50,795 nt of DNA from Pseudomonadota bacterium (GCA_043809315.1 JAZDDX010000028.1:1-50795); one strand, 5' to 3'; shown: positions 477-24,181, counted from the first letter of the stretch. Translations and numbers: made by a program. Notes: generated from the letters alone by a model not told the origin.

Positions 477-505
477 AGCCTAGTCGAACCGCGGTGGGGT
501 GGCAA
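477..505 (-). promoter_or_regulatory. Sigma70-like promoter, probably giving a leaderless SH3b transcript
   Basis: TTGCCA (505-500), 17 nt, TAGGCT (482-477), then 7 nt to the ATG at 469; no Shine-Dalgarno. Confidence 0.45.
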
Positions 506-627
506 TCGCGAGGTTCTTCGGAACACCGATGTCTCACCGGGGCCGGCGACACACGTCAGGAGACACGCAAGTGTTTGATATGTTGGGGCCAACTCTGGCA
601 TGGGGATTGCTGTCTAATGAGGTTGGA

Positions 628-1701
628 ATGTGGCGGAACCGTTCATTCTGGATCGCCTCGATGTTCGCCCCTGCGCTCGTCTGCTCGAGTCTGGCGAATG
701 CTCGCGCAGGGGATCTTTCCAAATTCAGGAAGATACAGGAATCGGTCGTCGAGTTGATCAACCGGGGTTCGAATCACACAGACACGGAAACATTGTGCGC
801 TGCCGTCTTTATCGGTGAGCAGGAAATCCTGACGGCGAAACATTGCCTGAACCGCGACGGGACGCATATCATCCGAACAGCCCAGGGGAGGCAATATCCG
901 GTTATCGGGGTTGTCCGCGGGTCCGGACCCAACGATCTCGCCAGCCTTCGAGTAGACGTGCCGGCGAATCTGTTTCGGCCGTTGCGACTCTCGGCAATGC
1001 CGCCCCAGCACGGGCAGATTCTTACGCGCGTGTCCCCGACCACGTTTGGTTCCGATGCCATCTCTCAGGGGGCGCTGATCAGTTTCTTTGGGGATCCGCT
1101 CAACGCAGGAACGAACTACCAGGTTCGGATCTCGGTCACGGAGGGAATGAGCGGGAGTCCGGTCGTGGACGAAAAGGGAGAGATTGTCGGCATTGTTTTG
1201 AACCAATGGCCGTTCTTTTCGAAACTTGAGATATCCGAACTTCCCCGGACCGACATCGGGGTCGTTGAACATTTTCGAGATCAACGAGAGATCGCCCCCC
1301 CCCTTTCCGTCTCGGTGTGGTGGGAACAGACCTGGAAATCAATCGAGGGAAAGTACCTCGAGCTGCTCGGAGTCATCATGGAAAGAAACTCATGTGAGCG
1401 CGTAGAGACAAGAATTCAAAAGTTGACCGAGGGAGCGGGGGATTTCGCCGAACCGTGGGTCCTGCTGGCGTTCTGTCAGGCGAAAGCGGGAAGGACCGAC
1501 GACGCGATCAGGAGTTTCGAAAAAAGCACGACCCTCAAAGAAAACCCGCTTCTCCTAACGGAACTCGCCTATCTCTACTTTAGCCGTGAGGGGGGAAGAT
1601 CGCAGTCGGATCGAAACATGGCGATAAGATACCTAAATCAAGCAATCGATCTTTCGCCCGACGATAAAGCCATCCAATCGCTTCGCGAGAATTATCGCTG
1701 A
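628..1701 (+). CDS. Secreted trypsin-like (S1) serine protease with C-terminal TPR repeats
   Basis: Triad motifs TAKHC, NDLASL and GMSGSP; TPR-like helices (AEPWVLLAFCQAKAGRTDDAIRSFEKS). Start moved from 499 to ATG 628, which has GAGG upstream and begins a signal-like N-terminus. Confidence 0.8.
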   Translation: MWRNRSFWIASMFAPALVCSSLANARAGDLSKFRKIQESVVELINRGSNHTDTETLCAAVFIGEQEILTAKHCLNRDGTHIIRTAQGRQYPVIGVVRGSGPNDLASLRVDVPANLFRPLRLSAMPPQHGQILTRVSPTTFGSDAISQGALISFFGDPLNAGTNYQVRISVTEGMSGSPVVDEKGEIVGIVLNQWPFFSKLEISELPRTDIGVVEHFRDQREIAPPLSVSVWWEQTWKSIEGKYLELLGVIMERNSCERVETRIQKLTEGAGDFAEPWVLLAFCQAKAGRTDDAIRSFEKSTTLKENPLLLTELAYLYFSREGGRSQSDRNMAIRYLNQAIDLSPDDKAIQSLRENYR

Positions 1702-1704
1702 GGT

Positions 1705-2928
1705 TCAAAGACACCCGTTGATCCGCACGTAATCCTTCTTCGGGGGAGGGGTGACTACGACCTCCGGCACCACGTATCCCCCCTTCTTTTTGAATTCTTC
1801 GACGGGATCCGGCTTCGGGCCTTTACCCGATGTGCGAGGTGAGTAGGGGATTCCTTTGGTGGAAGTTTTTTGAACCCCGCCAAAGGAAGAAGGCAATTCC
1901 GGGGTGGGCTCGTAAGATCTCATATATTTCTTCATATCCATTCGGCCCCCCCATGTAGGGGCCTTGTCGGAGACTTCTACAGGTTTGTTGAGTTCTTGTT
2001 TTGCCAGTTTCCATGCCGCATATACCATTCCGAGCGAAATCAGCGATTCCGTCGCTTTCGCGATGGCCGGACTTCCTGTCACCCAACCAGCAAAATTACC
2101 CATTTCAACAGGAATTGCCATGAGCGATCGTACCCCCTGTTGTTCGTAGGACCACGAAGGTGAATAAACATTCTCGGGCATCGAGATGGACCCGGGATCT
2201 TCCGCATGAAATCCGACCGGCGGTTGCGGAAACCCAAACTGATATGCAAGGTCCGCCTCAACGACCTTGTTGAAGTCGATCGGACCGGAAGCCGTGCCGT
2301 CGCTCTGCATTCCCGTCACATCGATCTTATTGATCGGATCGTTGTCGGCATACGCATAACGGTTCAGATGGACGACCGACTTGCCGGGCGTGAGGGGGTC
2401 GGGAGAGATGAATCGACCGAGAACGGGATCGTAGTACCGGGCGTGGAGATACAGAAGACTTGTCGAAGAATCTCTCCTCTGCCCCGTATACCCGAGCGAT
2501 TCATTATGCATCGGCTGTGTCAACCAGTCGCCGTAAGGTTTGTATGAGGCCGTCGAACCGGGGACCGGCGTCGCGTTCTTGTCGGTCTCGACGCTGACCG
2601 ATCCCTGGTAATCGGTGTGGAGCCAGATCGTCTCGTATGTCGTGTTGTTCGTCGTCGTGCAGCTCTGACAGGTTCCTCCGACTCCCGCCCGGGTTTTGTT
2701 TCGCTGGAGCGCGTTCGGCCCCGATCCACCGCCCGGACAGGTGACCGGAACGCAGGTCTCGGTTGACGTGGTCGTCGCGATCACCTTCTGCACGGGCCCG
2801 AACGGTCCGGGGATGTAGGTCGTAGCGACGATTTGAATGGCTGAGGAAGATTGAGAGAAGAAGAGAACAGCGAAAACAAGACCGATCTGTAAAGAGATGG
2901 GGGTTTGTTTTGACGTCACACGATTCAT
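1705..2928 (-). CDS. Rhs core + variable C-terminal domain cassette 2, with own signal peptide
   Basis: MNRVTSKQTPISLQIGLVFAVLFFSQSSSA signal; Rhs core (LHTDYQGS, GYTGQRRD, ARYYDPVLGRFISPDP, YAYADNDPINKIDVTG); about 200-aa C-terminal domain of unknown type from 2310. Confidence 0.85.
   Translation of the reverse strand: MNRVTSKQTPISLQIGLVFAVLFFSQSSSAIQIVATTYIPGPFGPVQKVIATTTSTETCVPVTCPGGGSGPNALQRNKTRAGVGGTCQSCTTTNNTTYETIWLHTDYQGSVSVETDKNATPVPGSTASYKPYGDWLTQPMHNESLGYTGQRRDSSTSLLYLHARYYDPVLGRFISPDPLTPGKSVVHLNRYAYADNDPINKIDVTGMQSDGTASGPIDFNKVVEADLAYQFGFPQPPVGFHAEDPGSISMPENVYSPSWSYEQQGVRSLMAIPVEMGNFAGWVTGSPAIAKATESLISLGMVYAAWKLAKQELNKPVEVSDKAPTWGGRMDMKKYMRSYEPTPELPSSFGGVQKTSTKGIPYSPRTSGKGPKPDPVEEFKKKGGYVVPEVVVTPPPKKDYVRINGCL
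2311..2826 (-). repeat. Rhs-core homology block, copy 2 (paralogous to about 3715-4233)
   Basis: Near-identical protein and DNA from VATTY(I/V)PGP to DVTG in both cassettes; similarity ends right after DVTG-MQ. Confidence 0.9.
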
Positions 2929-3077
2929 GGCTTGCGTGGTGGCACAACGACTGGACCAATCCTCCATTCGAAATGAATCTCTCGGACAGGCTTCGCATAC
3001 TCGGGGCTCCGACCTACTACGCTGGGTGGGCAGCGAAATGCGTATGGTGTCATCCGACTCCCACAACTAGTAGTCAC
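2925..3077 (-). CDS. Candidate 50-aa ORF between the two Rhs cassettes (possible immunity or coupling peptide)
   Basis: GTG at 3077 preceded by GGGGA, overlapping the end of cassette 1; its TGA overlaps the cassette-2 ATG (ATGA). No recognisable domain. Confidence 0.3.
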   Translation of the reverse strand: MTTSCGSRMTPYAFRCPPSVVGRSPEYAKPVREIHFEWRIGPVVVPPRKP

Positions 3078-4308
3078 GATATTCCCCGCGTACGAATTCC
3101 TTAATCTTTCGGACGCTAGTGAAATCGGGTTGGGCATTGATTGATCTCTGGAACTTCATCTCTGCTTTATAAGCTGAGTTTTCAAATTCGTGTCCACCAA
3201 GTTTATCAAACCTTCTTAGCGCATGATCACCTTCATGCACCGCGGTAGAGAGCATTACATCATCCCCAGTATTTCGAAGATATAGTTGCCCATTCTTCTG
3301 GAACCCGGCCACCCTTTCTACGTTTCCAAACAAGCCATTTTCATCTGCGGCTTTTGCAAACATTTCCTTGCCGAGCAAATTTACTTTAACTTCACCGCGA
3401 CCAATGGCCACACCGACACGGAAAGCGTCCTTGCTTCCCGCTGTAATTAGCTCCGTTACCAACCGTTTAACTGAAGGGAGGCTACCCGTTGCTCCCGCAA
3501 CCAAAGACATCATTTGGTCCTGAAGCTTCGGATCTTGTTTTATGAGCTCAAACCTAGCTTCGGCAACATCCTTTCTTGAGGTCGGTGCCTTGGCGCTCAC
3601 CGTCACGCCATTCATTACATAGGGATTCTCAAACGTCCCATGAAGATTGAGTTTCTTTCGTAGGATATCTGACTGGGACGCCGTTCCGGTTGCATCTGAG
3701 CTCATCGCCTGCATCCCTGTCACGTCGGTCTTGTTGATCGGATCGTCGTCGGAGTACGCGTAATGGTTGAGCTTCACGATCTCCTTCCCCGGTGTGATCG
3801 GATCGGGGGAGATGAATCTTCCTAGCGCCGGATCATAGTAGCGAGCATGTAAATACAGGAGATCCGTCGATGAATCCCTCCGCTGCCCCGTGTATCCGAG
3901 CGATTCCTGGTTCGTCGGCTTCGCCAACCAATCGCCGTACGGCTTGTACGATGCGCTCGATCCGGGGACCGGCGTCGCGTCTTTGTTTGTCTCGAGGCTC
4001 ACCGACCCCTGGTAGTCGGTGTGGAGCCAAATTGTCTCGTACGTCGTGTTGTTCGTCGTCGAACAACTCAAGCAGGTGCCGCCGATTCCTGCGCGTGTCT
4101 TGTTTCGCTGGAGCGCGTTCGTTCCCGATCCGTCTCCAGGACAGGTGACCGGAACGCAGGTCTCGGTTGACGTGGTGGTCGCGATCACTTTCTGAAGAGG
4201 GCCCCCAGGACCCGGAACATACGTCGTCGCAACCGACGTCGCTCCGAACGCCAAATGCGGCGCAAGCGACACCGCGAACCAAGCGAACTCTGTTCGAAGA
4301 ACCTTCAT
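3067..4308 (-). CDS. Rhs core + HExxH metallopeptidase-like C-terminal domain, cassette 1, with own signal peptide
   Basis: ATG 4308 (or GTG 4311) overlaps the upstream stop (GTGATG). Signal-like MKVLRTEFAWFAVSLAPHLAFG; Rhs core ending PINKTDVTG; C-terminal STAVHEGDH...HEFENSAY. Confidence 0.85.
   Translation of the reverse strand: MKVLRTEFAWFAVSLAPHLAFGATSVATTYVPGPGGPLQKVIATTTSTETCVPVTCPGDGSGTNALQRNKTRAGIGGTCLSCSTTNNTTYETIWLHTDYQGSVSLETNKDATPVPGSSASYKPYGDWLAKPTNQESLGYTGQRRDSSTDLLYLHARYYDPALGRFISPDPITPGKEIVKLNHYAYSDDDPINKTDVTGMQAMSSDATGTASQSDILRKKLNLHGTFENPYVMNGVTVSAKAPTSRKDVAEARFELIKQDPKLQDQMMSLVAGATGSLPSVKRLVTELITAGSKDAFRVGVAIGRGEVKVNLLGKEMFAKAADENGLFGNVERVAGFQKNGQLYLRNTGDDVMLSTAVHEGDHALRRFDKLGGHEFENSAYKAEMKFQRSINAQPDFTSVRKIKEFVRGEYRDY
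3715..4233 (-). repeat. Rhs-core homology block, copy 1
   Basis: Paralogous to 2311-2826. Confidence 0.9.
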
Positions 4309-7300
4309 CACGGCGCCGGCGAAATCTCCTCGGCCCCCCCGTCCAAGTAGAGCGTCGATCGATCCGGGGTGATCAGCCTCAGACGCTGGTTGTTCCCGTC
4401 ATACACGAACTTCGTTTCCGTCCCGCCGTTCGGCTTAAAGCTCGTCGGGAAATTCTCGACGCTCCAGGTGATGTCAGCGGTGATCCCCGTCGTGACGTTC
4501 CGGTGTTTCGTCATGTTTCCGTTCGGATCGTAAAGGTACTGGGGGTTCGCCTCCGCCGCCGCGCACCCTCCGGAGGACGTCACCGCGAAGACCGCATGCG
4601 GCCTTGCACTCTCCGGCTCGGGATAGCAATACTCTTTCAAGGAAGAGGCCCCCGCCAGCTTCGTCTTCAGGTTCCCGATCGCGTCGTAGGTGAACGTTTC
4701 GGTGTTGGGCGAGCTGCCGTTCCCCTGATACGTCGCCTTCTTCAGCCGGTGCATCGAATCGTAGATGAACGCCCAGGGTCCCCAACCGTCCAGCATCCCC
4801 TCTTTGTTCCTTTGGGAATAATTCAGGTTCTGGAGTTCCGCTCCGGTCGTCGCGTTGACCGTTCGGATCGATGTCAGCCAGCCGCGGGCCGGGCTGTAGT
4901 CGTAGGTCGTTTTCGTCCCGTTCCCGTTCCACAGCTCGAGCGGCTGTCCGGCGGCGTTGTAGGTCGCCGACTTGAGGACCGGACTTGTCGTCGAACCGGT
5001 CGTCAAAGAGACCGAGGTGAGTTGTCCCAGCGAGTTGTACGAGTTCGTGTACGCCACGCCGAACGGGTAGACCTTGTTCCGGACCCGCCCGCTCGGATCG
5101 TACGTCTGCGAATAGACGTGAACCGCGCTGTTCGTCCTTCGGACCGTCTGCAGGAGACGCCCGGACGCGTCGTAGTTGTACTGTTCGGCGTTCGTGGTCG
5201 AATTGCCCGGCAGCTCTCGCATCGTCGTCAGATGTCCGATGTTGCAGTACCCACCCGAGGCGCAGCTCGATCCCTGCGGCTGGTCGTAGTCCCACTGCAC
5301 GTCCGGCGTTTCCGTGTTCGGACGGTTCACCCACTTTTTTCGCATCCGTCCAAGGGCGTCGTAGGCGTAGATGATCGACTGCGATTTGGCGGTCTGGACA
5401 CCCAACAACTGCCCGAGGGCGTCGTACCCGAACGTTGTCGTCCCCCGATCCGGGTCGACCTCTCGGCGTATCAGGCCGCGGGAGTCGAAGACCGTTTCCG
5501 TCGGGTTGTTCTGAAAATCCGTGATCCTTTTCAGGTTCCCCCGGACGTCGTACTCGTACTTCGCCCAAACCGCCGTTCCGTCCAGGTACTCCTCGTGCCG
5601 GGCGAGCTTCCCGATCGAGTTGTAGATGTCCGCGCTCTTGTGCCCCTCTTCGTCCGTGTAGGTGACCTTCCAGGTCGAATAAGGGTTGGAGAGATCGCCC
5701 AGAGCGGTGTACTCCGCGAAGACCGTCGGTCCGCCGTTGTCGAAATCGTACTGGAGCGACAGCGGCCGGTTCAGCGGGTCGTACAGGGTCCTCGTCCGAT
5801 AGACGTCGTCCCCCCTCTTCGCCGGTGCCGTTTTGGTCTGCACCTGCCCGCGGCCGTTGAACGTGGTCTTCGTGTAGATATAGTCGGAGGGAAGGTTTCC
5901 GGCATCGGCGACACAAACCGTCGTGCCGCTCTGGGACTCCGCCGAGAAGATCCGACTTTTCCAAGTTCGCCCGAGCCCGTCGATGAAATTCCAGGTGCAG
6001 ATCTCCGGCTTTTGGTTTCCGTCCGGACCGATCGGCCCCGGAACCGCCGTCTGAAGAAAACGATTCGAAGCCGTGAGCGCCGAATTGTCCAGACTTCGAT
6101 AGCTGGTCTTCTCGTACTCTCCCGTCGGCATCGTCTTCTTCGTGACACGACAGAACACATCGTACTCCGTCTTCGTGAGCTTCCCGTTCGGATCTTTGAC
6201 CGAAAGCGGCGCACCGCAGACGTTGTTCCATGAAGTGACTTCCGTCACCTGCCCGAGCGGATTCGTCGTTTTGCTCCGGTAGAGGTGAAACGTCCCATCG
6301 TAATCGTAGGCCATCGCGGCACCGAGTTCGTTCGTCTCCTGTTTGAGGTTTCCCGGATAGTCCGTGAAGTAATCGAATGACTTCATGTACGAATCCGGCG
6401 TGGAAGGATGCTCCCCGAGAGGATCGTAGACCTTGAGCGTCCGGGTCTTGGGATTCCCGAAACGAAGATCGGTGCGATCGAAATAAGTCATCGCGCTCTC
6501 GGAGAGCGGGGTCCCCGAAGCGGAGGTCCCGGAATAGACCGCGACGGAAACCGGCCGGTCGACCATGTAATAACTCAGGTTCGTGTATTCCGGATGGGCC
6601 GCGTCCGAATAATTGAACGTCTGGTACGTCGTCCGCGTGACCTGGTTGTCGTTCGGCAAGGTGTCGTTGATCGTTTCCCCCCCTCCCGGATCGATGCCGC
6701 GGAAGATCCGCGAGCTGGTTCCCGACGCCTTTTTGTAGTTCCCGTAGTTCTTCTCGAAAACGAGGTTTCCAAACGTGGCGTAGTTCGGGTCGGGGGTGGG
6801 AAGGCTCAGATCGTAGACCTCTTCCTTGAGGGTCGAAAACCCGAGCGCCCCGCCTGTGTCGTACGTATCGGTTTGCGTTGTTTTCGGAAGGGTTACGTAC
6901 CAGTAAGGCATGACCAGGTCCTCTTGCCAGGGGATGTCCGCATTGGTCAGCCGGAAATAAGTGAACTTCGTTTCCGACAGGAGGATTCCGTCGCCGGCCG
7001 GGTCACCCAGGTAGTATTTCGACGAGAGCGGCAGACCGGCGGTCTCGAAGGTCTGGTTGTACGTCGTCCGGACGTACGGGTTCTCCGACTCGTCCGCTTC
7101 GGCCTTCGGAAGTTTGATCGTGACGGTCTTGAATCCGAGCGGCTTCTTCCACCGCCGGTCATAAGCCCCGCCGGAATAGGAGTACTCGGTCTTCGACGTC
7201 GTTGGGGAAACCCCGTCGGAAACCTCCAGCGTCTGCACCGTCTGCGTAATCGGGAAGGCCGAATTGTTCTCCGGCCAGAACGAGGAAGGTTTGTACGTGA

Positions 7301-9881
7301 CGGTATACGTCCCTCCCGTAGGAAGGGTGATCTTCTTGACCAGATCGGGAGAACCCCCGTCCACCACCCGCGTGCCCCTCATCATTCCGGTCACAGGGAG
7401 CCACCCCTCTTGAACCTGCCGGAACAGAAGGTCGGTCTTTCCGTACCCGCTGAAATCGGCCGTCGTGAGGCGCCAGTTCTCGGAGGTGAGGCCGGACGAG
7501 ATCTGCGCGGGGTAAAACCCGTTCCCGGTCGCCTGCAGCCAGTAGATGTTGTTGTCCCCCTCCATCCGGCCCTGGCTCACGAGATCCATCTTCCCGTCGC
7601 CGTTTAAGTCGACCGGCGAGAGCGCGGAACTCGAAATCGAGGGGAAGCTCGTGAAAGAAACTCCTTGTTGGGTGAATGGAACCGACGCGGTGTATCCGGA
7701 TGCCAGCTTGGCCAACGCAGCGGAACCATTGTTGATCCAGAGGGACATAAACGGGGTTAACGGGGAAGGGGGCTCGATCGAAACCACATTGCCCTGGACA
7801 AAGAGATCGGGAAGGCCGTCACCGTTAAAATCAGCGGGAATCACGATGGCATGCTGCCAAGAGTCGAGCGCAGAGGAGATCGTCACGAGACCGTATTTGG
7901 ATTGTCCGGAGCCGTACGGATCGGTTCGCCGACTCACCAACAGGACGAGGTTCGTGGGGGCTCCCGGATAGTACCGCGGTTTGAAGATCAGGTCGGTCTT
8001 CCCGTCGCCGTTGAAATCGGTCGGAAGGATGTCGGTATAGTCTCTCTCCAAGTTCCCCATCGGGGTCGTGCCCCCCCCTCCGAGAACGTCACCGATCTCC
8101 TGCCGAAGGAAACGACCCGACCCGCCGCTCGCCTGCGCCATCAGGAAGAACGGGGCGCCGACACCGCGAACGAAGATGTCGGTCTGCCGGTCGCCGTTGA
8201 AATCCCCCGGGATCATTTCCGCCGCCGAAGAATCCCAGCATTGGAAGGAATTCCGGGAGTCCTGTCGTTGGCACCAAGATGCCGGGATCCATTCGTATTG
8301 GCTCACGTCGACGGCAGTCGAGAAGAGGCGGGGCAGATCCGAATTCTCGGTCGCCATCAAGAGCCACGGTTTCCAGGCGGGAAGCTTGGTGTCCCCCGTC
8401 GACAATCCGGAGTGACTGCACATGTTGCAGTTCAATACGTTGTAATCGGCGCACGCTTCCGGACAAGGGTAGGTTCGGCCCAGGGACCGGACCGGCTGGA
8501 CCAGAAGATCGGTCCGTCCGTCCCCGTCGAAGTCGCCGCTCAGGATCTTCGCGGAGTACTCCTGACTTCCTCCGCCGGTGAACCACCGTGCCGGCTTCAT
8601 CCCCCAGGAATTGCTGACATTCGTCGGGTCGGCACCGCTCTTGGCGAACCAGGTTTCCCCCGTGAGCCCGATCCCTTTCAAGAGAAGATCGCTGACGCCG
8701 TCGCCGTCGAAATCCCCCGTGACCGCCTGGCGACGATCCCCGCGCCAGGTCTCCTCATCCCCCGATACCGGGGCGAACGGTTCCAGGAGCGCGGTCGCTT
8801 TGTACCATTCGATCTTCGTCGGGGGGAGCTGGCTTATCCCGTCCGATCCGTATTGCGTCACACTCGTGAGAAGAGACCGGCCGCTGGCCGAGGTGTCGTC
8901 GTAGGCGAGGCCATAGCTTCGCACCTTAGTTCCGTTCGCTTTGACGGCGATCGACTGGATCCGCTGATCGATCGTGAGGGTCTGGGCGCCGTCGTTGAAG
9001 GTCGGCCGATCGGTGGAGGGCCGAGGGGTGGTCGATACGTCGACGCTGAAACGTTCGGCGCCATACCGGACGCTTTTCAGCCCTTCCGTGCAAGTCGCCT
9101 CGTAGGCCGCGTACGACCCGTTCGCGTTCGTAACCATACTCAATCCCCAACGGAAGGTTCCGAATTCGCTATTGCAGATCCGACTGTAGACCGCTACCGA
9201 CCCGTCTTTTCTCCAAACCGTCCACTGGTTTGAGTCCCGGTAGATCCGCTGGAACGAATCGCTGCGTGTGGTGTAGAACCCGTTCAGTTTATTGGGAGGG
9301 TTGGCCCAGCGGGTTGTGCCGGTAATGGCAAGTGAGGCGTTCTGACAGCTTGGACTGTAGGCACGCGTGTCGAACCCGCTGCGGGGATCACCCGGAGTGT
9401 ACAGAAACGCCTGTGAAGTGCAGGGAATCAACTCCTGTCCGTCGAGATAGAAGCCATCCAGGTTGTCGTACCCGGTCCCGTTGTAGTTGTAAGTCGGCTG
9501 GCTGTAGGCCGGCCCCTTCCGTTCGATCGTGCTGTATCCCGAAAGAGACCAACCGACCCCCGCCATCCCGTTTCCGGCGTTTGAATTGTAGGTCAGCGCC
9601 AGATGCGGCTCGAGACCGTAATAGGCTGGAACTTCGATCGGGATCGACCAGCTGAAGCTGCCGCTCGACCCTTCGACATTCTTCGAAACCTCCGGCAGTT
9701 TGTTCGGCGCGTCTTTCGGAAAGGTGTCGGACGGAGCGGATGCCGCACCTTCAGCGACCGGAGGACGGTCGGAATCGATCCCGGTCGGGACCGACGCGGC
9801 GAACGAAACCGCCGTCAGAAAAATGGGGGAAAGAACCGCGCACAAGAGCGACAACGAAGCGAGGCGTAGCGGGCGACGCAT
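4308..9881 (-). CDS. Secreted TcB/TcC-like Rhs (YD-repeat) shell protein: SpvB-like N-terminus, FG-GAP/VCBS repeats, TcdB-midN-like region, YD repeats; no Rhs core or toxin tail
   Basis: Signal peptide; GSFSWSIPIEVP...LALTYNSNAGNGMAGVGW; seven D(F/L)(D/N/S)G(D/Y)xxxD repeats; YSYSGGAYD...LGF; many YD-x-xG repeats; ends RLITPDRSTLYLDGGAEEISPAP*. GGAGG ribosome-binding site. Confidence 0.92.
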   Translation of the reverse strand: MRRPLRLASLSLLCAVLSPIFLTAVSFAASVPTGIDSDRPPVAEGAASAPSDTFPKDAPNKLPEVSKNVEGSSGSFSWSIPIEVPAYYGLEPHLALTYNSNAGNGMAGVGWSLSGYSTIERKGPAYSQPTYNYNGTGYDNLDGFYLDGQELIPCTSQAFLYTPGDPRSGFDTRAYSPSCQNASLAITGTTRWANPPNKLNGFYTTRSDSFQRIYRDSNQWTVWRKDGSVAVYSRICNSEFGTFRWGLSMVTNANGSYAAYEATCTEGLKSVRYGAERFSVDVSTTPRPSTDRPTFNDGAQTLTIDQRIQSIAVKANGTKVRSYGLAYDDTSASGRSLLTSVTQYGSDGISQLPPTKIEWYKATALLEPFAPVSGDEETWRGDRRQAVTGDFDGDGVSDLLLKGIGLTGETWFAKSGADPTNVSNSWGMKPARWFTGGGSQEYSAKILSGDFDGDGRTDLLVQPVRSLGRTYPCPEACADYNVLNCNMCSHSGLSTGDTKLPAWKPWLLMATENSDLPRLFSTAVDVSQYEWIPASWCQRQDSRNSFQCWDSSAAEMIPGDFNGDRQTDIFVRGVGAPFFLMAQASGGSGRFLRQEIGDVLGGGGTTPMGNLERDYTDILPTDFNGDGKTDLIFKPRYYPGAPTNLVLLVSRRTDPYGSGQSKYGLVTISSALDSWQHAIVIPADFNGDGLPDLFVQGNVVSIEPPSPLTPFMSLWINNGSAALAKLASGYTASVPFTQQGVSFTSFPSISSSALSPVDLNGDGKMDLVSQGRMEGDNNIYWLQATGNGFYPAQISSGLTSENWRLTTADFSGYGKTDLLFRQVQEGWLPVTGMMRGTRVVDGGSPDLVKKITLPTGGTYTVTYKPSSFWPENNSAFPITQTVQTLEVSDGVSPTTSKTEYSYSGGAYDRRWKKPLGFKTVTIKLPKAEADESENPYVRTTYNQTFETAGLPLSSKYYLGDPAGDGILLSETKFTYFRLTNADIPWQEDLVMPYWYVTLPKTTQTDTYDTGGALGFSTLKEEVYDLSLPTPDPNYATFGNLVFEKNYGNYKKASGTSSRIFRGIDPGGGETINDTLPNDNQVTRTTYQTFNYSDAAHPEYTNLSYYMVDRPVSVAVYSGTSASGTPLSESAMTYFDRTDLRFGNPKTRTLKVYDPLGEHPSTPDSYMKSFDYFTDYPGNLKQETNELGAAMAYDYDGTFHLYRSKTTNPLGQVTEVTSWNNVCGAPLSVKDPNGKLTKTEYDVFCRVTKKTMPTGEYEKTSYRSLDNSALTASNRFLQTAVPGPIGPDGNQKPEICTWNFIDGLGRTWKSRIFSAESQSGTTVCVADAGNLPSDYIYTKTTFNGRGQVQTKTAPAKRGDDVYRTRTLYDPLNRPLSLQYDFDNGGPTVFAEYTALGDLSNPYSTWKVTYTDEEGHKSADIYNSIGKLARHEEYLDGTAVWAKYEYDVRGNLKRITDFQNNPTETVFDSRGLIRREVDPDRGTTTFGYDALGQLLGVQTAKSQSIIYAYDALGRMRKKWVNRPNTETPDVQWDYDQPQGSSCASGGYCNIGHLTTMRELPGNSTTNAEQYNYDASGRLLQTVRRTNSAVHVYSQTYDPSGRVRNKVYPFGVAYTNSYNSLGQLTSVSLTTGSTTSPVLKSATYNAAGQPLELWNGNGTKTTYDYSPARGWLTSIRTVNATTGAELQNLNYSQRNKEGMLDGWGPWAFIYDSMHRLKKATYQGNGSSPNTETFTYDAIGNLKTKLAGASSLKEYCYPEPESARPHAVFAVTSSGGCAAAEANPQYLYDPNGNMTKHRNVTTGITADITWSVENFPTSFKPNGGTETKFVYDGNNQRLRLITPDRSTLYLDGGAEEISPAP
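7426..8718 (-). repeat. Seven FG-GAP/VCBS-like repeats (likely beta-propeller) within the Rhs shell
   Basis: GDFDGDGVSDLL, GDFDGDGRTDLL, GDFNGDRQTDIF, TDFNGDGKTDLI, ADFNGDGLPDLF, VDLNGDGKMDLV, ADFSGYGKTDLL. Confidence 0.85.
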
Positions 9882-9968: not shown

Positions 9969-10259
9969 CTACAGCCGGGTACCCTTTAAGCAGTTCGTAA
10001 CGCACTCGTTGTTGCAGAATTCAAAAGAAACGCTTGCCACCGCAAAACGGCCACCACAAGTATCGCGACAGCCGCTGCAGCCAGCCAGCGTCACGGTGTT
10101 TTCCGGCACGTCGGAAGGGAGGACCACTGAATCGCTTGTCGAAGCCGGGTCTGAAATCCCGGGAATCGCCCAGTTGGACGAATCACCCACCTTGCTGTTT
10201 CCGCACGCAGTAAGCATCGTCAGCATCACCACCGCCCAGCATGTTGCGACCCTTTTCAT
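9969..10259 (-). CDS. Small Cys-rich lipoprotein
   Basis: Lipobox MLTA-C; C-terminal half has six Cys (CSGCRDTC...CNNECVTNC); GAAGGAAG ribosome-binding site. Confidence 0.7.
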   Translation of the reverse strand: MKRVATCWAVVMLTMLTACGNSKVGDSSNWAIPGISDPASTSDSVVLPSDVPENTVTLAGCSGCRDTCGGRFAVASVSFEFCNNECVTNCLKGTRL

Positions 10260-10626: not shown

Positions 10627-13600
10627 CTACCGATAGTCCCCCGTCAGCGAGAAGGCAGCCCAGTAGCCGGGGTGCGAATAGTAGTCTTTCACGAGAAGCT
10701 GCGCTTTTCGGAGCGCCTCCGCCTTCGTCTGCGTCAGGTAGTTCCGGTAGAAATGTTTGACGAGGATCGCCGTCGAGACGTCGCTCACGCGCCAGAGACT
10801 TGAGAGGATCGAATGCGTGCCGGCGTAGAGAAACGCGCGATTCAAACCGATCAGCTCCCCGCCCCCCTCGATCTTCGCAAGGCCGGTCTGACAGGCGGAC
10901 AACGTCACGAGATCCGCGTTCGCCCGGAGATTGAAGATCTCCTCGACCGCAAGATCGCCGGTCGAACTTTCCGTGGGGGCGAGCTTGATCGCCGAGAAGA
11001 GCGGATTGATCGGGTCGAACTCCCCGTGCGCGGCCATATGAATGATGTCGAACCTTCCGAGGTTGGAAGCGACCCACCGTTCCGTCGCCTTCTCGCGCGT
11101 CAGCGTTTCGATCTTCGGGAAGTCGAGAGAGATCGCCCCGACCTCCTTCTCCGCGAACGGGAGATCAAGCGCCGGGTTCCCGAGGTTTGGGTTTCCGATT
11201 GCGAGAACGCGGGCGCTTCCCTTGTCAATCCTCCGTGGGACCGTCGTGTATTTCAGAACACTGGCGCTCGGGGAATAGAACAAGGCGTATCGGTCGACGG
11301 CGAACCTCTTTCCATCGAATAGAGAGGCGTACGAAAGATAGTGAAGCGTCTCGTGCGGAGAGATCCCGACAAACCGTTTCCCTTCGATCCACGGTTCGAC
11401 CGGTTTCAGGATCCAGCGATTCAGCTCTTCCGATTCTTTCAAGAGAGGTTGTTGTTCCTGCATCAGCCTGGAGTAAGCGACCAGCTTCGCTTCGAGCAAT
11501 TTCTTCCCGACCTGGACGCGGGAGACGCGGATCCCCTGGTCGGTCACGACGAACGCGATCAGCTCCGACGGCGTCAGGAAGTACTCCACGAACGCGGTGT
11601 CATTCCCAAGGATCTTCTGAAACTCCGGCAACGTAAGGACATCGACGGAGACGAACGCGGAGAGTTCCGGTCGGCTGGCGCGGATTTCGATCAGGAGATC
11701 CTCGCGCACCTTCCGTGCGTCGCGCAATTGGCTCTGAACCTTGGCACGTTCCGTGTCGTCCGACGCGGCGCCGAGGCGACTTTCCAGATCGGTCAGAAGA
11801 CGGCGACTCGCACGGTCCTTTTCGAGCAACACCCGGTCCTCCGGGGCGGTCGCACGAACGTCGCGGTTTCCGAGGAGGTCGATGAAGCTCCGGGAGCGCG
11901 CCCGCTCGACGTACCTCCAAGCCTCCTCCGTCTGGGCCGGCTGTTGCCGCAACAACAGAAGGACGATCTCCTGGTAGAGGGAGAGTTTGTTCGTGACGAA
12001 GCTGTTCCGGAACTCCTCGATCTTGATCGACGCCCCCATCTTTTCGACGACGTCGATCGCCTCCTTGAGATAGAGCAGGGTGCCGGGAATGTTCTTTCGG
12101 CGCGAGGTCACGCGTGCGAGCCCCTGAAGGGCGCGCCACTCCACCTCCTTGAGGCCGAGTTCGCGCGCCCGCGAAAGAGCCTGCTTGTAGGAATCGAATG
12201 CGGGATCGCTCGCGCTCTGGGCCCAGTAAAGATCGCCGAGACTCTGAAGCGACTTCGTCTCGTTCTCCCGGGCGCCGATTGAATGGGAGAGACGAACCGC
12301 CTCTTTGAGATTCTTCTCGGCATCGGCGAAGCGGCTCAGCCGCGTCTGGCTGATCCCGAGATTCCTCCGGTCGTACGCCTCCCCCCAAACGGTATGGAGC
12401 TTCTGATCGATCGTGAGCGCCTGCTCGAAAAGGGCGATCGATTTCTCGAGTTCCCCGCGGTCGCGGTAGACCAGCCCGGCATTGTTGTAGGCGGCCGCCT
12501 CGTCGATCGGAGAGACGAGCTTCCGGGAAAGTTTGAGGGCGACCTCCTGCTCCTCGATCGCCTTGTCATGCTGGTTCAGCGTCCAGTAGATCAAGCCGAC
12601 GGTCGAGTGGCAGAGAAGGCGCATCCGATCGTCGTTCGCTTGTTCCGCGGCGGCGAGTGCGATTCGTTGCCAGCGGAACGCGTCGAAGTAATTCCCCTCC
12701 GCCCAATAGGTGTTGGCGACATAGAGCGCCGATTTCGAGGAGAGGGGGACGGCATTGTAGATTTCCCGTGCTTTCGGGAAGTCGGCGCGGCGTTCGAAGA
12801 CCAATCCGATCTCGAGCGTCGCCTCGTCGGCGAGGAGTGGTTTCTTTGCACCCCTAAACGCCTCGACCGCTTTCCGAAACGCATCTTCGGCGCGGGGGTA
12901 GTCGTTCAGGCGCAGGTAGTAGATCCGCCCGATCCGCCGCCATTGTTCGCCGGCCCCCGCTGTTCCTGTCTTCCCGTAGATGCCGAGCGAGCGGTCGAAC
13001 TCCGTCAAAGCCTCGCGGTACCGGTTCGCGTTTTCGTAGACGACCCCCAATGTCGAGAAGGTGTCAGCCACCTTTTCTCTGGGACTTCCGAGTTTCTGGT
13101 AGAGGGAAGCCGCCTCAGTCAAAGCCGCGAGAGATTCGGGGAACTGTTCCGCCCGGGATTGGAGAACACCCAAGAACTGAAGGGCCTTCGCCAACCCGAC
13201 GCTTCCGTCGGGGGCGGAGTTCTTACGGCGGATTTCAACGAGACGCTGCGTGTAGGAGATCGCCGTCGGAAGATCGTCGGATCGGTACGCGGCGGTTCCG
13301 GCGACGTCGAGAAGTTGCTCTCTCGTTACCCCCGCACCGCTGTCCACTTTTTGGGCGTCGAGAAGGCGCAACGCTTGATCGAACCGTCGGACCGACTCCC
13401 CCCACCGTTCCGTGCGGTAGAGAGAGGCCGCCTGTGTCACTGTTTCCGCAAGCGCCGTCTCGGCGGCCGCCTGACGCTCCTCCGGCGTAAGCCCGAGAGT
13501 TCCGAAAACGGAACCGGCGCTGAAGTCGTTTGCCCGAGCCCCTTCGTCGGCAGCGAGCGCCCGTGGGATCGCGGAGGCCGGCAGCGAAACGACCGACGCG

Positions 13601-16600
13601 ACCCCGCCGCGCGCCCACCACTCTCCGAGCAGGGCGAGTAGACCGTCCGACATCGGCGGATTCGATATGGGGAGGAAAACGGTGGTGACGCCGGACCCCA
13701 GGAGAATCGAAGCGGGCACCTCACGCTCGAAACGGGGCGCATCCGGAATCGGGAGATCGAACCATCTCCGAAGCGGTGAGACAGCGAAGGTCAGGGGGGC
13801 CGGAGAAACGAACCAGTCGGCGAGGCCGAGACGGTCCGCGAGATCGGTCCTGTTCTTCCACGAGACCGCCGTGCGGGATGTGGGGGGGCGGTTTTCGTTT
13901 CCGAACGAGTAGAACGACCGGGCGAAGAGGTTTTGAGCGCGGAAGGCGTAAAAAAGATGAGCGGCGCTCGCCACACGCGAACAGGGATGTCCGGTCGGGC
14001 AGGGGATCGTTCCGGCGATATAGAGATCGCGCGGAAGATCGGAGAGCGGGGCGTCGGCTCGCTCGAGCGTCAAACGATCCGAACGGAGAAAAAGGCGGAA
14101 GAGTCCCTTCGGAGTTTCAACGCCGCGCAAAAACCCGCGATTCGGACCGAGAGCCTCCTGGAGTTCCGCCGCCTCGATCGTTCCGAGGCGGAACAGGGAT
14201 CCGAGTCCTCGCTCCCTTTCGTCGAGCGCCGCCTGTGCCGCCTCGATCCGTTCTTTTTTCCCCTCCCGCAACGCCGCCTTGAGTTCGTCGAGAGCGGCCA
14301 TGCCGTCCGCGGTTGCGGCATGTTCCGGCAAGACACCTCCCATCGCGACTTGAAGGGCGATCCGCGATCGCCACTCGGCCGCGTTGTACGCCGCCTCGGC
14401 GTCCCCCTCGGAAACCGCGAAGGCAAGCCATCGGTCGAAAAGCGGGAGAACGGCATCCAACCCATCCGTCAATGGGATGGCGGGGGTCGAGGTGAGGAAC
14501 GAGAGAACCGGCTCGAGAGCCGACGAAATCTCGGCAAAATTCGCGGGGATTTTCGAGAGAGCGACGGCGGAACGAAGACGGAGGAGGAGGTCGTTTCGTT
14601 TCAAGCCGACCGCCCATTGCTCGAGCGCGGCGAGATCGAGGGAACGACGAGCGGCATGCCCCGTCCAACGGAAGTGGGCGATGTCGAGTTCGAGAAGGAG
14701 AGGTTCGTCGTCGGTAAGTAAGTTCGAGACAATCCGAAGTCGTTGAAGGGTAGATGTGAGAAGATTCTCCTCGAGCGACAATTCGGCCAAACGGAGCCGT
14801 TCAAGTGAAATTCGGGCCGCAAATGCGGCCGCGTCCGAATCGGTTCTCTTGGTGAGACGATCGAACGCCGTGTCGAGCGTTTCCATCGTCTGCTTCTCCG
14901 TGACGACGGTCGGAGCGATCGAGTGAAGTCGAGCGAGGGAGAGAGCATTTTGTCCCATCCCGATTTCGTGCGGCAGGGCGCTCGCGAGCGCGAACGAAGA
15001 CTGAAACTCCTTGGCCGCCTCCTCGAAACGGTTGAGGCGGGTCAAGAGAACCCCGCGGCGGTTCGCGAGAATCGATTCCTTGAGATGGAGTGGCGGACGT
15101 TTGGTCACGTCGACCGACGATTCTTTCGGAAGGGCCGAACGTTTTTTGTCGAGGGCCGCCAATGCCTCGGCATCGTGACCGCGGGTTCTCTCCAGGCGCT
15201 CGATGAAGGTGTAGAGAAGCTCCCGCTCCGCCGGTTTGGAGAACCCCTTGGAGGCCTCGGACGAATCCTCCCCGAGCGCGACATCCTGGTGAATGTTGAC
15301 CAACGATCCGATACTCTTCCCCCGGGTCGTCGCGACACCGTGACGGCCGAGAAGCTCGAAGCTTTCTTCAAAAGCATCCCGGGCGTCGGCCAAACGTTTC
15401 TCCTCGGCGCTCCCCTGCCTCGGGGGGGCGTCGAAGAGGTTCAGAGCGAGGTTGCGAAACGCTTTCGCTTCGTTCGCCCCGCGCCCGAGCCGTTGGTTCA
15501 GTTCGGCGACCTTCGTGAACCCGATGGCCGCCTCCTCTCGCCTTCCCCGCGATTGAAGGGAGAGCGCCCGGGCGTCGTTGGTCTCGGCCCGATGGGAGAG
15601 AATTTCTTTGGGGGGGAGGGATTTGTCCCGCGCGACGCGATCAAGCGAGGTGAGCGCCTCGTCCGCCAGCGCGACGCTCTCATCATACCGTTCGAGATGG
15701 AACGCCGAGCGGGAGAACCGCTCGAGATAGACGAGCCGCTGCGTTTCGGTGTCGAACGAGAGGTCGTACGACCGACGCAGCGAATAGTGTTCGTACGCCT
15801 TGGCGTAATCGCCGAGGAGGAAATACCCGTTCCCGACATTGAGGGTCAGGTCGCCGTAATTCTGGAAATCTTCCTGCGGATCCGAGAGGGAACGCGCGAT
15901 CGTGTACTGATCGATCGCCCGCTCAACCGAACCGGATTCATTTAAGAGTTCCTGCCGCTTCTCATAGACGAAACCGAGGGTCTGATGCGGGAAGACCGCC
16001 TGACCGTTCTGGGAGATCGCCTCGAGGAGGTCCGGCTCCGCCCGGTCGAAGGCGGTCGCCGGCGGTTCTTCATAGGTATGGGCGAGGCCGATGGCGTAGC
16101 GGGGAAGATAATGATTCGGGAGGCGCCGCTGTTCGTCCTCGTAAATGGAGAGAGCCTTCGACGTCTCGCCGAGAGCGGCATACGCGGCAACCAGGCCTCG
16201 GTGCGCCTGGGGGATCTCGTAATCGAACGAGATCAGGTCGCGGAACGTCCGGATCGCCAGACGGAAATCTTTCCCTTTGAGTTCGTCCTTCCCCTTGGCC
16301 AGCAATCCACCGACGAAACGTCGCCGGGCTTCTTTGCGCCATGGATCGTTCTTGGAAACCTGCCGCTCCGCTTCGCGGAAGAGGGCGAGGGCCTGATCGT
16401 AATCCCCCCGGTCAGTCAGGAGACGGGCGAGGGCGAGTTGGGCGCGAGCCTTCTGTTTCTTTTCTTGCGGGTACTGAGCGATCACCGAGCGGTAGGCCGC
16501 CTCGGCGGCGGGGCGTTCGTTCCGTCCGAGCGCCCGGTCCCCGAGCGTATTGATGGCGAGGGCCGGGAGAATCGGAACCGAGGAGTACGAGCCGGGGATC

Positions 16601-18264
16601 TCCCGCAACTTCGCCTCCTTGAGCGCCTCGGTGGGGCTGGCAGCCATCCAAAGATCGAGCATTTTCTGTGCGGCGGTCGACGAATACGGCTCGGCGTTCG
16701 GATATCTCCGGATCAGGTCGAGGTGGTTCGAAAGGAGTTTCGGCGTGTCGCCGAACTTTTCGTAGAGTGCCGTCTTCTCGAGGAGCGCCTGTGCGGCGAG
16801 ACCCTCTTCCTTCGGACACCTCGTGACGACGCGGTCGTACGTTACGGCGGCGCGATCGTCCGATCCGAGGGCATGCTCCGCGCGGGCGGTCTCCAGAAGA
16901 GCGGTCCCGGCGATCCGCGGGTCGTTTGATCCGGCGATCGCGGAGAGGAGTTGAATCACGGAAGGGGAGCGGCTCCGCGCGAACTCCTGGCGGAGAAGCT
17001 CGATCTTCGCGAGCGAAGACCAGGGTGTTTCTTTGGAGGCTTCCGCCCGTTCCCAGGCGGAACGTGCGCGGGACGGTTGGGAGAGATGCCGGTCGGTGAC
17101 GAGGCCGAGGTGGTAGAGCGCTTCCGCGGTGGCGATCTCTTCATAGGCGAGCGCCGCCGTGGCCGGCTCTCCCTCCTCGAGTTCGGCCGCGGCAGCAAAG
17201 AGATCGCGACCGCTCTTGTAGGCGGAAAAAAGGCCGTCGGCAGGAATCGATAAAAGATTCGATGCACGAGCGCCGCGTTCTTCGCGGGAGGAGTACAGAA
17301 TTCTGCCGGCCCGTGCGGCCGGGAAGAGATCGTACGTTGCGCCGGAGGTGAGGCGGTGGAGGCGGGGGGTTGAAAGATCGGCCGAAAAGATCGACGGACG
17401 ATCGGCAACCGTGATCGTGCCATCTCCGTTCGTGTCATCGGCATAACGGGAGAAGAAAACTCGGTCGCTCGTGTTCGACCAGGAGGGGTGAAGATCGAAC
17501 GGCCCGTCGGTCAGAGATTTCTCTTCGTGATTCCGCAAATCGAGAAGATGGATTGCACCCCCCAGGCTGAAAGCGAGCCACCTTCCGTCGGGGGAGGGGG
17601 CGGGCATGCTTCCCCCTCCGTGCGTGACCGGTTCGATTTCTTTCCCGGGAAGCGTGATCGAGAAGATCTCGGGACGATCGTTCGCCGCGCGGGTGAAGTA
17701 GATCCGGTCACCGGATGGCCCCCAGGCCGGCTCGGTCTCCGCTGCTTTCTCATCGGTCAAGCGGACGAGAGAACCCTGGGAGAGGAGATACTTCGTCACG
17801 CGGGCAGCCAACCCCCCGCTCTTCTGGATTGCGTCGTCCGATTTCGAGAGAACGGTTCCGAACCGTTGGTACAGGCGCGCACGGATCTTCTCCGGAATCG
17901 GATCGGCAAGGCGGAGATTCAGGATGTAGAGATCCCCCTTGGCATCTGCCCGGTACGAGACGAACGCAACCTGTTCGCCGGTCGGCGAAACGGAGGGCCA
18001 GGTGTCGCGCGCCGTGTGGAAGGTCAGGGGGAAATCTCCGACGGCGCCGCTCCCGGGGAGATACCGCAGGAAGATGTCGGGGTTCCCCTTCCGGTCGGAA
18101 ACGTAGAGGACCGAACGGCCGTCAGGTGTAAGAGAAGGCAGATAATCGTCCGCTGTCGTCGTGGTGATCCGCTCGGGGTGACGGACGCGGTCGGCCGGCG
18201 AAGAGGAAACCTGAAGGTTCGCGGCAAGGGCCAAGCCGGCGAACGAAGAGGAGAGTCGTCTCAC
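10627..18264 (-). CDS. Giant PD40/TolB-propeller, TPR and CHAT (caspase-like) domain protein
   Basis: PD40 repeats (PSLTPDGRSVLYVSDR, PSVSPTGEQVAFVSYR, PAPSPDGRWLAF); long TPR arrays; C-terminal CHAT with HMAAHGEF, VTLSACQTG and HPGYWAAFSLTG. GTGA overlap with the upstream gene. Confidence 0.9.
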   Translation of the reverse strand: MRRLSSSFAGLALAANLQVSSSPADRVRHPERITTTTADDYLPSLTPDGRSVLYVSDRKGNPDIFLRYLPGSGAVGDFPLTFHTARDTWPSVSPTGEQVAFVSYRADAKGDLYILNLRLADPIPEKIRARLYQRFGTVLSKSDDAIQKSGGLAARVTKYLLSQGSLVRLTDEKAAETEPAWGPSGDRIYFTRAANDRPEIFSITLPGKEIEPVTHGGGSMPAPSPDGRWLAFSLGGAIHLLDLRNHEEKSLTDGPFDLHPSWSNTSDRVFFSRYADDTNGDGTITVADRPSIFSADLSTPRLHRLTSGATYDLFPAARAGRILYSSREERGARASNLLSIPADGLFSAYKSGRDLFAAAAELEEGEPATAALAYEEIATAEALYHLGLVTDRHLSQPSRARSAWERAEASKETPWSSLAKIELLRQEFARSRSPSVIQLLSAIAGSNDPRIAGTALLETARAEHALGSDDRAAVTYDRVVTRCPKEEGLAAQALLEKTALYEKFGDTPKLLSNHLDLIRRYPNAEPYSSTAAQKMLDLWMAASPTEALKEAKLREIPGSYSSVPILPALAINTLGDRALGRNERPAAEAAYRSVIAQYPQEKKQKARAQLALARLLTDRGDYDQALALFREAERQVSKNDPWRKEARRRFVGGLLAKGKDELKGKDFRLAIRTFRDLISFDYEIPQAHRGLVAAYAALGETSKALSIYEDEQRRLPNHYLPRYAIGLAHTYEEPPATAFDRAEPDLLEAISQNGQAVFPHQTLGFVYEKRQELLNESGSVERAIDQYTIARSLSDPQEDFQNYGDLTLNVGNGYFLLGDYAKAYEHYSLRRSYDLSFDTETQRLVYLERFSRSAFHLERYDESVALADEALTSLDRVARDKSLPPKEILSHRAETNDARALSLQSRGRREEAAIGFTKVAELNQRLGRGANEAKAFRNLALNLFDAPPRQGSAEEKRLADARDAFEESFELLGRHGVATTRGKSIGSLVNIHQDVALGEDSSEASKGFSKPAERELLYTFIERLERTRGHDAEALAALDKKRSALPKESSVDVTKRPPLHLKESILANRRGVLLTRLNRFEEAAKEFQSSFALASALPHEIGMGQNALSLARLHSIAPTVVTEKQTMETLDTAFDRLTKRTDSDAAAFAARISLERLRLAELSLEENLLTSTLQRLRIVSNLLTDDEPLLLELDIAHFRWTGHAARRSLDLAALEQWAVGLKRNDLLLRLRSAVALSKIPANFAEISSALEPVLSFLTSTPAIPLTDGLDAVLPLFDRWLAFAVSEGDAEAAYNAAEWRSRIALQVAMGGVLPEHAATADGMAALDELKAALREGKKERIEAAQAALDERERGLGSLFRLGTIEAAELQEALGPNRGFLRGVETPKGLFRLFLRSDRLTLERADAPLSDLPRDLYIAGTIPCPTGHPCSRVASAAHLFYAFRAQNLFARSFYSFGNENRPPTSRTAVSWKNRTDLADRLGLADWFVSPAPLTFAVSPLRRWFDLPIPDAPRFEREVPASILLGSGVTTVFLPISNPPMSDGLLALLGEWWARGGVASVVSLPASAIPRALAADEGARANDFSAGSVFGTLGLTPEERQAAAETALAETVTQAASLYRTERWGESVRRFDQALRLLDAQKVDSGAGVTREQLLDVAGTAAYRSDDLPTAISYTQRLVEIRRKNSAPDGSVGLAKALQFLGVLQSRAEQFPESLAALTEAASLYQKLGSPREKVADTFSTLGVVYENANRYREALTEFDRSLGIYGKTGTAGAGEQWRRIGRIYYLRLNDYPRAEDAFRKAVEAFRGAKKPLLADEATLEIGLVFERRADFPKAREIYNAVPLSSKSALYVANTYWAEGNYFDAFRWQRIALAAAEQANDDRMRLLCHSTVGLIYWTLNQHDKAIEEQEVALKLSRKLVSPIDEAAAYNNAGLVYRDRGELEKSIALFEQALTIDQKLHTVWGEAYDRRNLGISQTRLSRFADAEKNLKEAVRLSHSIGARENETKSLQSLGDLYWAQSASDPAFDSYKQALSRARELGLKEVEWRALQGLARVTSRRKNIPGTLLYLKEAIDVVEKMGASIKIEEFRNSFVTNKLSLYQEIVLLLLRQQPAQTEEAWRYVERARSRSFIDLLGNRDVRATAPEDRVLLEKDRASRRLLTDLESRLGAASDDTERAKVQSQLRDARKVREDLLIEIRASRPELSAFVSVDVLTLPEFQKILGNDTAFVEYFLTPSELIAFVVTDQGIRVSRVQVGKKLLEAKLVAYSRLMQEQQPLLKESEELNRWILKPVEPWIEGKRFVGISPHETLHYLSYASLFDGKRFAVDRYALFYSPSASVLKYTTVPRRIDKGSARVLAIGNPNLGNPALDLPFAEKEVGAISLDFPKIETLTREKATERWVASNLGRFDIIHMAAHGEFDPINPLFSAIKLAPTESSTGDLAVEEIFNLRANADLVTLSACQTGLAKIEGGGELIGLNRAFLYAGTHSILSSLWRVSDVSTAILVKHFYRNYLTQTKAEALRKAQLLVKDYYSHPGYWAAFSLTGDYR

Positions 18265-24112: not shown

Positions 24113-24141
24113 GTCTTAAGTAAGTAGGAACGAGCAGTTCG

Positions 24142-24180
24142 AAGGGGGGAGCGCTTTCACGCTCCCCCTTTTGTTTTTTT
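24142..24180 (+). terminator. Rho-independent terminator
   Basis: GGGGGAGCG / CGCTCCCCC stem followed by a T-tract. Confidence 0.85.
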
Positions 24181-24181
24181 C

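Follow-up and report, generated by a model that had tools for sequence, protein, structure and literature searches.

One way to approach a 50,795-nucleotide stretch of DNA from a Pseudomonadota bacterium (hereafter the window: the whole of contig C28 of G000, a genome of 2.42 Mb that is 96% complete) is to set it beside the cocoon-forming toxins of the Rhs and Tc families. The locus of interest encodes a large YD-repeat shell and, directly behind it, two short proteins, called cassettes here, each of which carries an Rhs-associated core and a variable tail. Two-chain cocoons with alternative cargos are already known, as are Sec-exported single-chain SpvB-propeller-RHS toxins and orphan modules. 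In all the studied cases we know of, the cargo belongs either to the chain that builds the wall (Rhs) or to a large half-shell produced within the same cytoplasm (TcC); how the C-terminal toxin enters the cocoon is, to our knowledge, a question the field has not settled. In the window, the wall is encoded apart from the plug-plus-cargo, every gene has an export signal of its own, and one shell is accompanied by several cargos. The genes are translationally coupled and under selection, and the genome contains the design three times.

The BC subcomplex of the Tc toxins (TcdB2-TccC3, YenB-YenC) is a two-polypeptide cocoon, and the locus resembles it in its parts: the B-like part has SpvB, beta-propeller and TcdB_toxin_midN domains; the C-like part is a core plug with a hypervariable toxin; several alternative C-type genes accompany each B; there are no immunity genes. 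Packaging of three different cargos from distinct loci is described for the Yersinia entomophaga Tc (PMC11067744). The differences lie in position and in export. The split in the window falls about 480 residues later, and the cassettes, at 407-444 aa, are far from the 851-1050 aa that PMC7861908 gives for 97.2% of TcC proteins; a TcC includes about 650 aa of Rhs wall, whereas the conserved module of a cassette has 169-173 aa. Sec-type signals are carried here by both parts and by a lipoprotein as well, while the Y. entomophaga Tc is released by lysis that depends on a type 10 secretion system, according to PMC10847048.

Single-chain relatives offer a second comparison. The TcdB/TcaC-type polymorphic toxins run signal peptide, SpvB, beta-propeller, RHS, core and toxin (Zhang et al. 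2012, PMC3482391 Table 1), and the same domain order results if shell and cassette are read in succession; here, however, a stop codon, a start codon and a further signal peptide interrupt the chain, whose C-terminal part comes in two to three alternative versions. The Rhs proteins of the type VI secretion system (Rhs1 of P. laumondii, RhsA of P. protegens) are similar in the C-terminal aspartyl-protease plug and, with variations, in a P-x4-D-P-x-G cleavage motif, and their pieces are reported to remain associated after self-cleavage (PMC8636562, PMC8765631). Unlike the present proteins, they are made as one cytoplasmic chain that is cut afterwards, with PAAR/VgrG-linked N-termini and no Sec signals. 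Rhs polymorphic toxins also have a cognate immunity gene after the variable toxin; none fits between the cassettes of these loci, because the gaps are just 23-138 nt.

Classical rhs orphans, finally, are tandem modules of conserved core and variable tip downstream of a large rhs gene, as the cassettes are. They lack export signals (1/36 by the crude test described below) and recombine with a main gene that bears a core; here the main gene is core-less, and each module is a complete secreted-protein gene with its own ATG. In the literature searched, which took in PMC7861908 and PMC3482391 apart from their supplements, no description was found of a core-less shell accompanied by core-toxin genes that each have a signal peptide.

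Shell and cassettes, and their recurrence in the genome

Three consecutive minus-strand open frames make up the locus: 4308..9881 (1857 aa), 3067..4311 and 1705..3066. The features read within them are as follows.

4308..9881, minus strand: shell; ATG start, 1857 aa, signal-like N-terminus, no Rhs core, no toxin tail
4306..4310, minus strand: TGATG overlap of shell and cassette 1, the cassette in the -1 frame
3067..4308, minus strand: cassette 1; 413 aa from ATG, residues 1-23 signal-like, module about 24-200, variable tail 201-413 with HExxH
4240..4308, minus strand: predicted Sec signal peptide of cassette 1; K/R n-region, hydrophobic core, ..AFGA, called by a home-made rule
3712..3948, minus strand: Rhs-associated core of cassette 1, TIGR03696 (aspartyl-protease plug), E 6.4e-24
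1705..2928, minus strand: cassette 2; 407 aa from the ATG at 2928, different signal-like N-terminus, same module, unrelated tail
2308..2544, minus strand: Rhs-associated core of cassette 2, TIGR03696, E 1.9e-24

The shell has the N-terminal architecture of a TcB (SpvB, PF03534; a beta-propeller of FG-GAP/FG-GAP_3, PF13517/PF01839; the TcdB mid/N region, TcdB_toxin_midN, PF12256), followed by YD/RHS repeats recognized both by the Pfam RHS_repeat family (PF05593, E 1e-30) and by TIGR01643 (E 2.9e-21). The Rhs-associated core TIGR03696, which usually follows the repeats within one chain, has no match in the shell by profile search, and the protein ends at ...TLYLDGGAEEISPAP and a stop codon. A first-pass annotation, made from the sequence alone, had claimed that an 1857-aa SpvB/FG-GAP/YD protein ends short of its core and that the next gene begins at a TGATG overlap; domain searches bear out the first claim, and the second is exact, as the stop TGA (4310-4308) and the ATG of cassette 1 (4308-4306) have an A in common. 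Stop/start overlaps of this kind are typical of coupled genes.

The arrangement is not confined to the window. G000 has eight TIGR03696 matches, one in a 2092-aa frame and seven in open frames of 416-694 aa; these seven short frames form tandem arrays behind three core-less shells of identical design:

C28 (window): shell of 1857 aa, two cassettes
C24: shell of 1837 aa, 42% identical to that of the window, three cassettes
C5: shell of 1799 aa, 44% identical to that of the window, two cassettes

Despite identities of only 42-44%, the three shells end at one alignment column, ..LYL[DE]GG..E[IL].., and for this reason the split is to be regarded as real and old. The junctions themselves differ: TGATG at C28, ATGA at C5, and at C24 a TGA, 8 nt and an ATG, the 8-nt spacer being a AGAGGGAG-type site, purine-rich and of GGGAG type. 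At all three loci the first cassette is out of frame with its shell, each time in the -1 frame.

Alignment of the seven cassettes, which are 407-444 aa in full, resolves three zones. The leader, 26-43 residues ahead of T-x-Y-V-x-G-P, combines K/R near the beginning with an uncharged hydrophobic stretch and an A-x-A-like site; the conserved module runs for 169-173 residues, up to D-V-x-G-M-Q; the tails occupy the last 199-231 residues. Within a locus the modules are 84-93% identical, the leaders 19-65% and the tails about 20%; between loci the modules fall to 54-62%. For the two cassettes of the window the figures are 22% for the signals, 84% for the adjoining module and about 21% for the tails. 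At the DNA level the two modules of the window are only 79% identical, which makes them a poor substrate for recombination. Module dN/dS is 0.09-0.15 at dS 0.23-1.08, and the cassettes must therefore have long been kept as coding genes.

Export signals were called by a crude, home-made rule, applied to the first start or to any start within the first 60 codons. All seven cassettes pass, although as paralogues they are not independent tests; among G000 open frames of at least 300 aa the background is 331/2265 (first start) or 438/2265 (any start in the first 60 codons), and 1/36 short core frames from other phyla pass. That the leaders have diverged to noise and yet keep the n-h-c pattern, beside a module conserved at 84-93%, argues for function. 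With the TIGR03696 matches, these results uphold the earlier description of both downstream genes as signal-like N-terminus, core and variable tail. The further claim that the second gene repeats the design with a different signal and tail also stands; its start needs correction, being most likely the ATG at 2928, 138 nt past the stop of cassette 1, and not the TTG at 3066.

The spacers ahead of the second cassettes at C24 and C5 (directly upstream of 53057 and 29125, respectively) have in common a motif of about 20 nt, CGGGGGACAC.AT.CGTAATT, that is missing from the 138-nt spacer of cassette 2 in the window. Public gene calls for the window's cassettes, P0004 (362 aa) and P0010 (286 aa), begin downstream of the leaders. 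Automated annotation thus conceals the signal peptides of both, and for cassette 1 the entire part before the core as well; since the calls start past the leaders, annotation pipelines can mask the design altogether.

The cassettes have a candidate self-cleavage site. In known Rhs proteins the cleavage motif is PxxxxDPxG[W/L/F], served by a catalytic Asp dyad (PMC8765631), and the plug of Rhs1, residues 1263-1357, is cut after L1342; PMC8636562 describes it as the last ~95 residues of the ordered shell, buried in the barrel. The motif of the cassettes is P-x4-D-V-x-G-M (P-x4-D-V-T-G-M in cassette 1), with Val where the known motif has Pro. P-x4-D-x-x-G and two Asp residues (D169 and D195) are invariant in 7/7 cassettes, the Asp spacing being 26 and not 22 residues. 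By analogy, cassette 1 is expected to cleave itself after M199.

Position of the split, relatives and a companion lipoprotein

The nearest fused homologues, of about 1950-2063 aa (P0015, P0136, P0021, P0049), run continuously through the split point and so locate it. The C-termini of the shells align with the F-x-Y-D-x-x-G-x-R-L-K-K..T-x-Y-L-G-D-D-Y-E strands of these proteins, some 30 residues short of W-L-H-T-D; this motif and the entire plug are supplied by the cassettes. The first-pass annotation had the cassette resume where the shell stops. From W-L-H-T-D onward the two are complementary, as it supposed; exact abutting needs a qualification, as in the mature cassettes about 70 residues (Thr-rich, with 2-4 Cys) come ahead of W-L-H-T-D, compared with about 30 past the shell end point in the fused homologues. 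This can be read in two ways: the cassette may contain an insert of about 40 residues, rich in Thr and Cys, or shell and cassette may overlap by about one YD hairpin.

The division between TcB and TcC lies elsewhere. In a PDB sequence search TccC2 208-317 and YenC2 234-334 align to shell residues ~1580-1690, and these alignments place the TcB/TcC boundary, with TcC residue 1, near shell residue 1380, about 480 residues before the present split. The earlier statement that the TcB/TcC split falls much earlier was correct.

Another division occurs in the same genome. The sole core-bearing long Rhs of G000, at C38 (locus L092), is itself split into 28157..29047 and 22083..28160, both on the minus strand. 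The upstream piece is a 296-aa SpvB part with a leader and ends in a GTGA stop/start overlap; the downstream frame begins with a lipoprotein-type signal (..LLFAC) and continues through FG-GAP propeller, RHS repeats, core and tail.

Cores are present in 14/41 genomes, G000 included, and in all four other genomes of the same family. An SdhA-like protein, compared as a taxonomic marker, is about 75% identical to counterparts in many phyla and does not discriminate among them. In G001 the six cores are all fused, in frames of 2080-2595 aa. G003 has a core-less shell of the same Pfam architecture in a 1682-aa open frame, then two cassettes in open frames of 740 and 741 aa. In G004, a single 2.9-Mb contig, a 1976-aa open frame encodes a core-less shell, and the genome's only three cores are in 488-565-aa frames beside it; long core-bearing frames are found in neither G003 nor G004. 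In G002 five complete cassettes of 343-568 aa stand in tandem, with one more cut by the contig end. Every short core frame of G002, G003 and G004 (10/10) passes the crude signal rule. The Rhs part of these cassettes starts at a ..PHA.. motif, about 100 residues upstream of the window-type split. Natural split points were seen at three places: between SpvB and propeller (C38), at the PHA motif (G002-G004) and at the last hairpins (window-type loci). Separately exported Rhs pieces look like a habit of the lineage, with at least three split points.

Some features of the G003 cassettes (L010 10632..12854 and 14457..16682) are peculiar to them: a lipobox-like leader (..AAC) is followed by a Ser/Thr-rich extension of about 230 residues, with no Pfam match, ahead of the Rhs part, and the 1.6-kb gap between the two could hold other genes.

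When cassette 1 residues 1-205 were compared with 1.84 billion cluster representatives, 94,983 matched at E<=1e-3 and seven at E<=1e-30, all of them G000's own cassettes and two of these the truncated public calls from the window. Among the matches listed, 143 were from other sources: 47 of at least 1000 aa, 35 of them with signal-like N-termini, and 96 shorter than 1000 aa, in 69 of which the plug falls among the first 230 residues; 10 of these 69 are signal-like. In several of the flagged short proteins the leader passes straight into the last YD repeats, and in P0121 straight into W-L-H-T-D. A contig scan by cassette alignment, with own and near genomes left out, returned only generic Rhs cores of other phyla (76 loci: 29 fused, 11 cut by contig ends, 36 short). 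The metagenome scan gave 29 loci, none close, the best being 49% identical over the core only; L094 and L108 are ordinary Rhs. For the C-terminus of the shell the nearest sequences are the two paralogues in the genome, and the next are at most 34% identical.

One further gene travels with the split shells:

9969..10259, minus strand: small Cys-rich lipoprotein gene; 96 aa, lipobox ..LTAC with six more invariant Cys behind it; 87 nt separate it from the shell downstream

Homologues of 94-99 aa, 34-35% identical, lie directly upstream of all three split shells on the same strand, and the three copies agree in the lipobox L-x-[AG]-C and in six other Cys that do not vary. A profile search of G000 finds exactly three copies, one at each split locus; the C38 Rhs has none. 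The same profile matches only once, and marginally, in 20 other genomes (E 0.0017, in G001). No Pfam family matched the protein, and no other neighbouring gene is common to the three loci. The lipoprotein is a candidate fourth component, an anchor or an assembly factor. The first-pass annotation had correctly listed a shell and two cassettes as the parts of the locus; it lacked this gene, and the recurrence in the genome and its relatives.

Probable assembly after export, or separate toxins

The locus is probably best understood as a multi-part cocoon of TcB/TcC-like type, in which a Sec-exported shell and alternative plug-cargo subunits are assembled after export, with the lipoprotein as anchor or helper. 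The operon would then supply a small lipoprotein; a Sec-exported shell without plug or cargo, made of SpvB, beta-propeller and nearly all of the YD-repeat wall; and two alternative Sec-exported plug-cargo subunits, each composed of a signal peptide, a stretch of about 70 residues that prolongs or overlaps the final YD hairpins, the aspartyl-protease core plug and a different toxin tail. Shell and cassette would be exported as unfolded chains; the cassette would dock by beta-strand addition onto the open end of the shell; the tail would be enclosed and the core would close the cocoon; finally, the core would free the tail by a cut after P-x4-D-x-x-G-M. One shell population could be loaded with either cargo, with no rearrangement of DNA, and the lipoprotein might tether the complex at the membrane or aid its assembly there. 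Shell-cassette binding, closure, self-cleavage, interchangeable cargos and the role of the lipoprotein are in this scheme predictions from sequence.

If shell and cassettes do assemble, loading must be a post-export event that occurs in trans. Toxins could then diversify without recombination, and the process could be tested with two defined proteins. A wider generalization is that the Rhs cocoons of this lineage are modular and assembled outside the cytoplasm, with lipoprotein, shell and plug-cargo Sec-exported separately and the cargo enclosed in trans; this is tentative, and could about as easily fail as hold. If it is true, the YD cocoon would be generally completable from fragments, and the lineage would provide a natural system for the study of cargo entry.

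Several considerations weigh against the trans-assembled cocoon. The signals were judged by a home-made rule rather than by SignalP, and binding of cassette to shell is a prediction from sequence comparison. The register at the joint is ambiguous: phmmer aligns cassette 1 residues 22-93 with the 59 residues of P0015 just ahead of W-L-H-T-D, a stretch that the C-terminus of the shell matches too. The route of a ~200-kDa shell across the outer membrane, and delivery of the toxin to a target, are left unexplained by the scheme. TcA (PF18276) has no match in the 96%-complete genome, in a search that was also silent in all 14 control genomes. No close relative outside G000 appears at E<=1e-30 among the 1.84 billion representatives. 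Moreover, cassette-like proteins exist apart from core-less shells: L081 and L082 are signal-bearing short core proteins, the first behind a complete Rhs of 2414 aa and the second on its own, and in G004 one of the three cassettes, cA, is on the strand opposite its shell. Such proteins may act on their own.

These last proteins are the starting point of a second perspective, in which each cassette is a mini-Rhs toxin that is secreted and acts by itself. Its few YD strands and its core would be only a self-cleaving pro-domain or carrier; the core-less shell would have some other role, as an adhesin or an empty teneurin-like scaffold; linkage of the two would reflect common descent. L081, L082, cA and the ~10 signal-like proteins among the 143 nearest representatives listed from other sources speak for this perspective, and it deserves to be taken seriously even though it is unlikely. 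Against it stand the shells, which at 3/3 loci stop just before the part that the cassettes carry, and the coupling of cassette 1 to the shell stop codon. The modules, furthermore, are locus-specific in step with their shells (84-93% identity within loci vs 54-62% between them). We know of no Rhs core that folds alone. Solved Rhs structures show it as a plug enclosed by the barrel (PMC8636562, PMC8765631).

A third perspective is the classical one for rhs loci: a main gene that is truncated or decaying, and behind it silent orphan modules of core plus tip, held as a store for recombination. The tandem modules of core and variable tail fit this, as does the occurrence of related tails in different loci (30-38% identity). 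Composition fits as well, with G+C of 0.49-0.57 over the cassettes (window 1501..4000) and 0.60-0.62 in the shell (4001..6000); classical rhs elements have low-GC tips. The store is nonetheless very improbable. The shell has no core region with which an orphan could recombine, and recombination of a cassette onto it is for that reason not to be expected; the cassettes all come with separate starts and signal-like leaders, whereas orphan-like frames elsewhere pass the signal rule in 1/36 cases; the module is under strong purifying selection, and the two in the window have only 79% DNA identity; and three diverged shells keep the same end.

That the split is an artefact or a recoding site (a sequencing or assembly frameshift, stop readthrough or a programmed -1 frameshift, yielding one fused protein) is hardly credible, and a frameshift artefact had already been called unlikely in the first-pass annotation. 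A run of seven G at 4334-4340 (minus strand), 24 nt before the shell stop, is a possible site of length variation and all three first cassettes are in the -1 frame, but the shell frame past the run still matches the conserved end of its paralogues (..GGxxE(I/L)..) and of the fused homologues (..DDYE(I/V)..), the three out-of-frame junctions are unrelated in sequence while the shell end is the same, and fusion would put a hydrophobic leader within the barrel wall, a leader that the second and third cassettes have too.

Toxin tails and neighbouring genes

Neither cassette tail of the window has a Pfam match. Tail 1, with its HExxH motif, gave sub-threshold atlas matches to metallopeptidase families (scores 0.80-0.85); for tail 2 the atlas comparison gave nothing usable. 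Elsewhere the tails are more informative: that of the first C24 cassette is Peptidase_M50B-like (Pfam, E 5e-7) and one in G004 is TseH-like (E 2.6e-14). Two tail types recur in different loci, one at 38% and the other at 30% identity. A scan for promoters and terminators found sites no more frequent than in shuffled sequence.

The lipoprotein gene is closely preceded, on its own strand, by a gene for a giant 2545-aa protein (10627..18264, minus strand) in which PD40 repeats and numerous TPR units are followed at the C-terminus by a CHAT (caspase-like) domain; the gene is not conserved at C24 or C5. On the other side, a gene for a peptidase with trypsin-like and TPR parts (499..1701, plus strand) is convergent with the cassettes and ends 3 nt from the stop of cassette 2. 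Further peptidase genes of the S41 and S8 subtilase families lie nearby, at 21391..23367 and 24182..25642, both on the minus strand.

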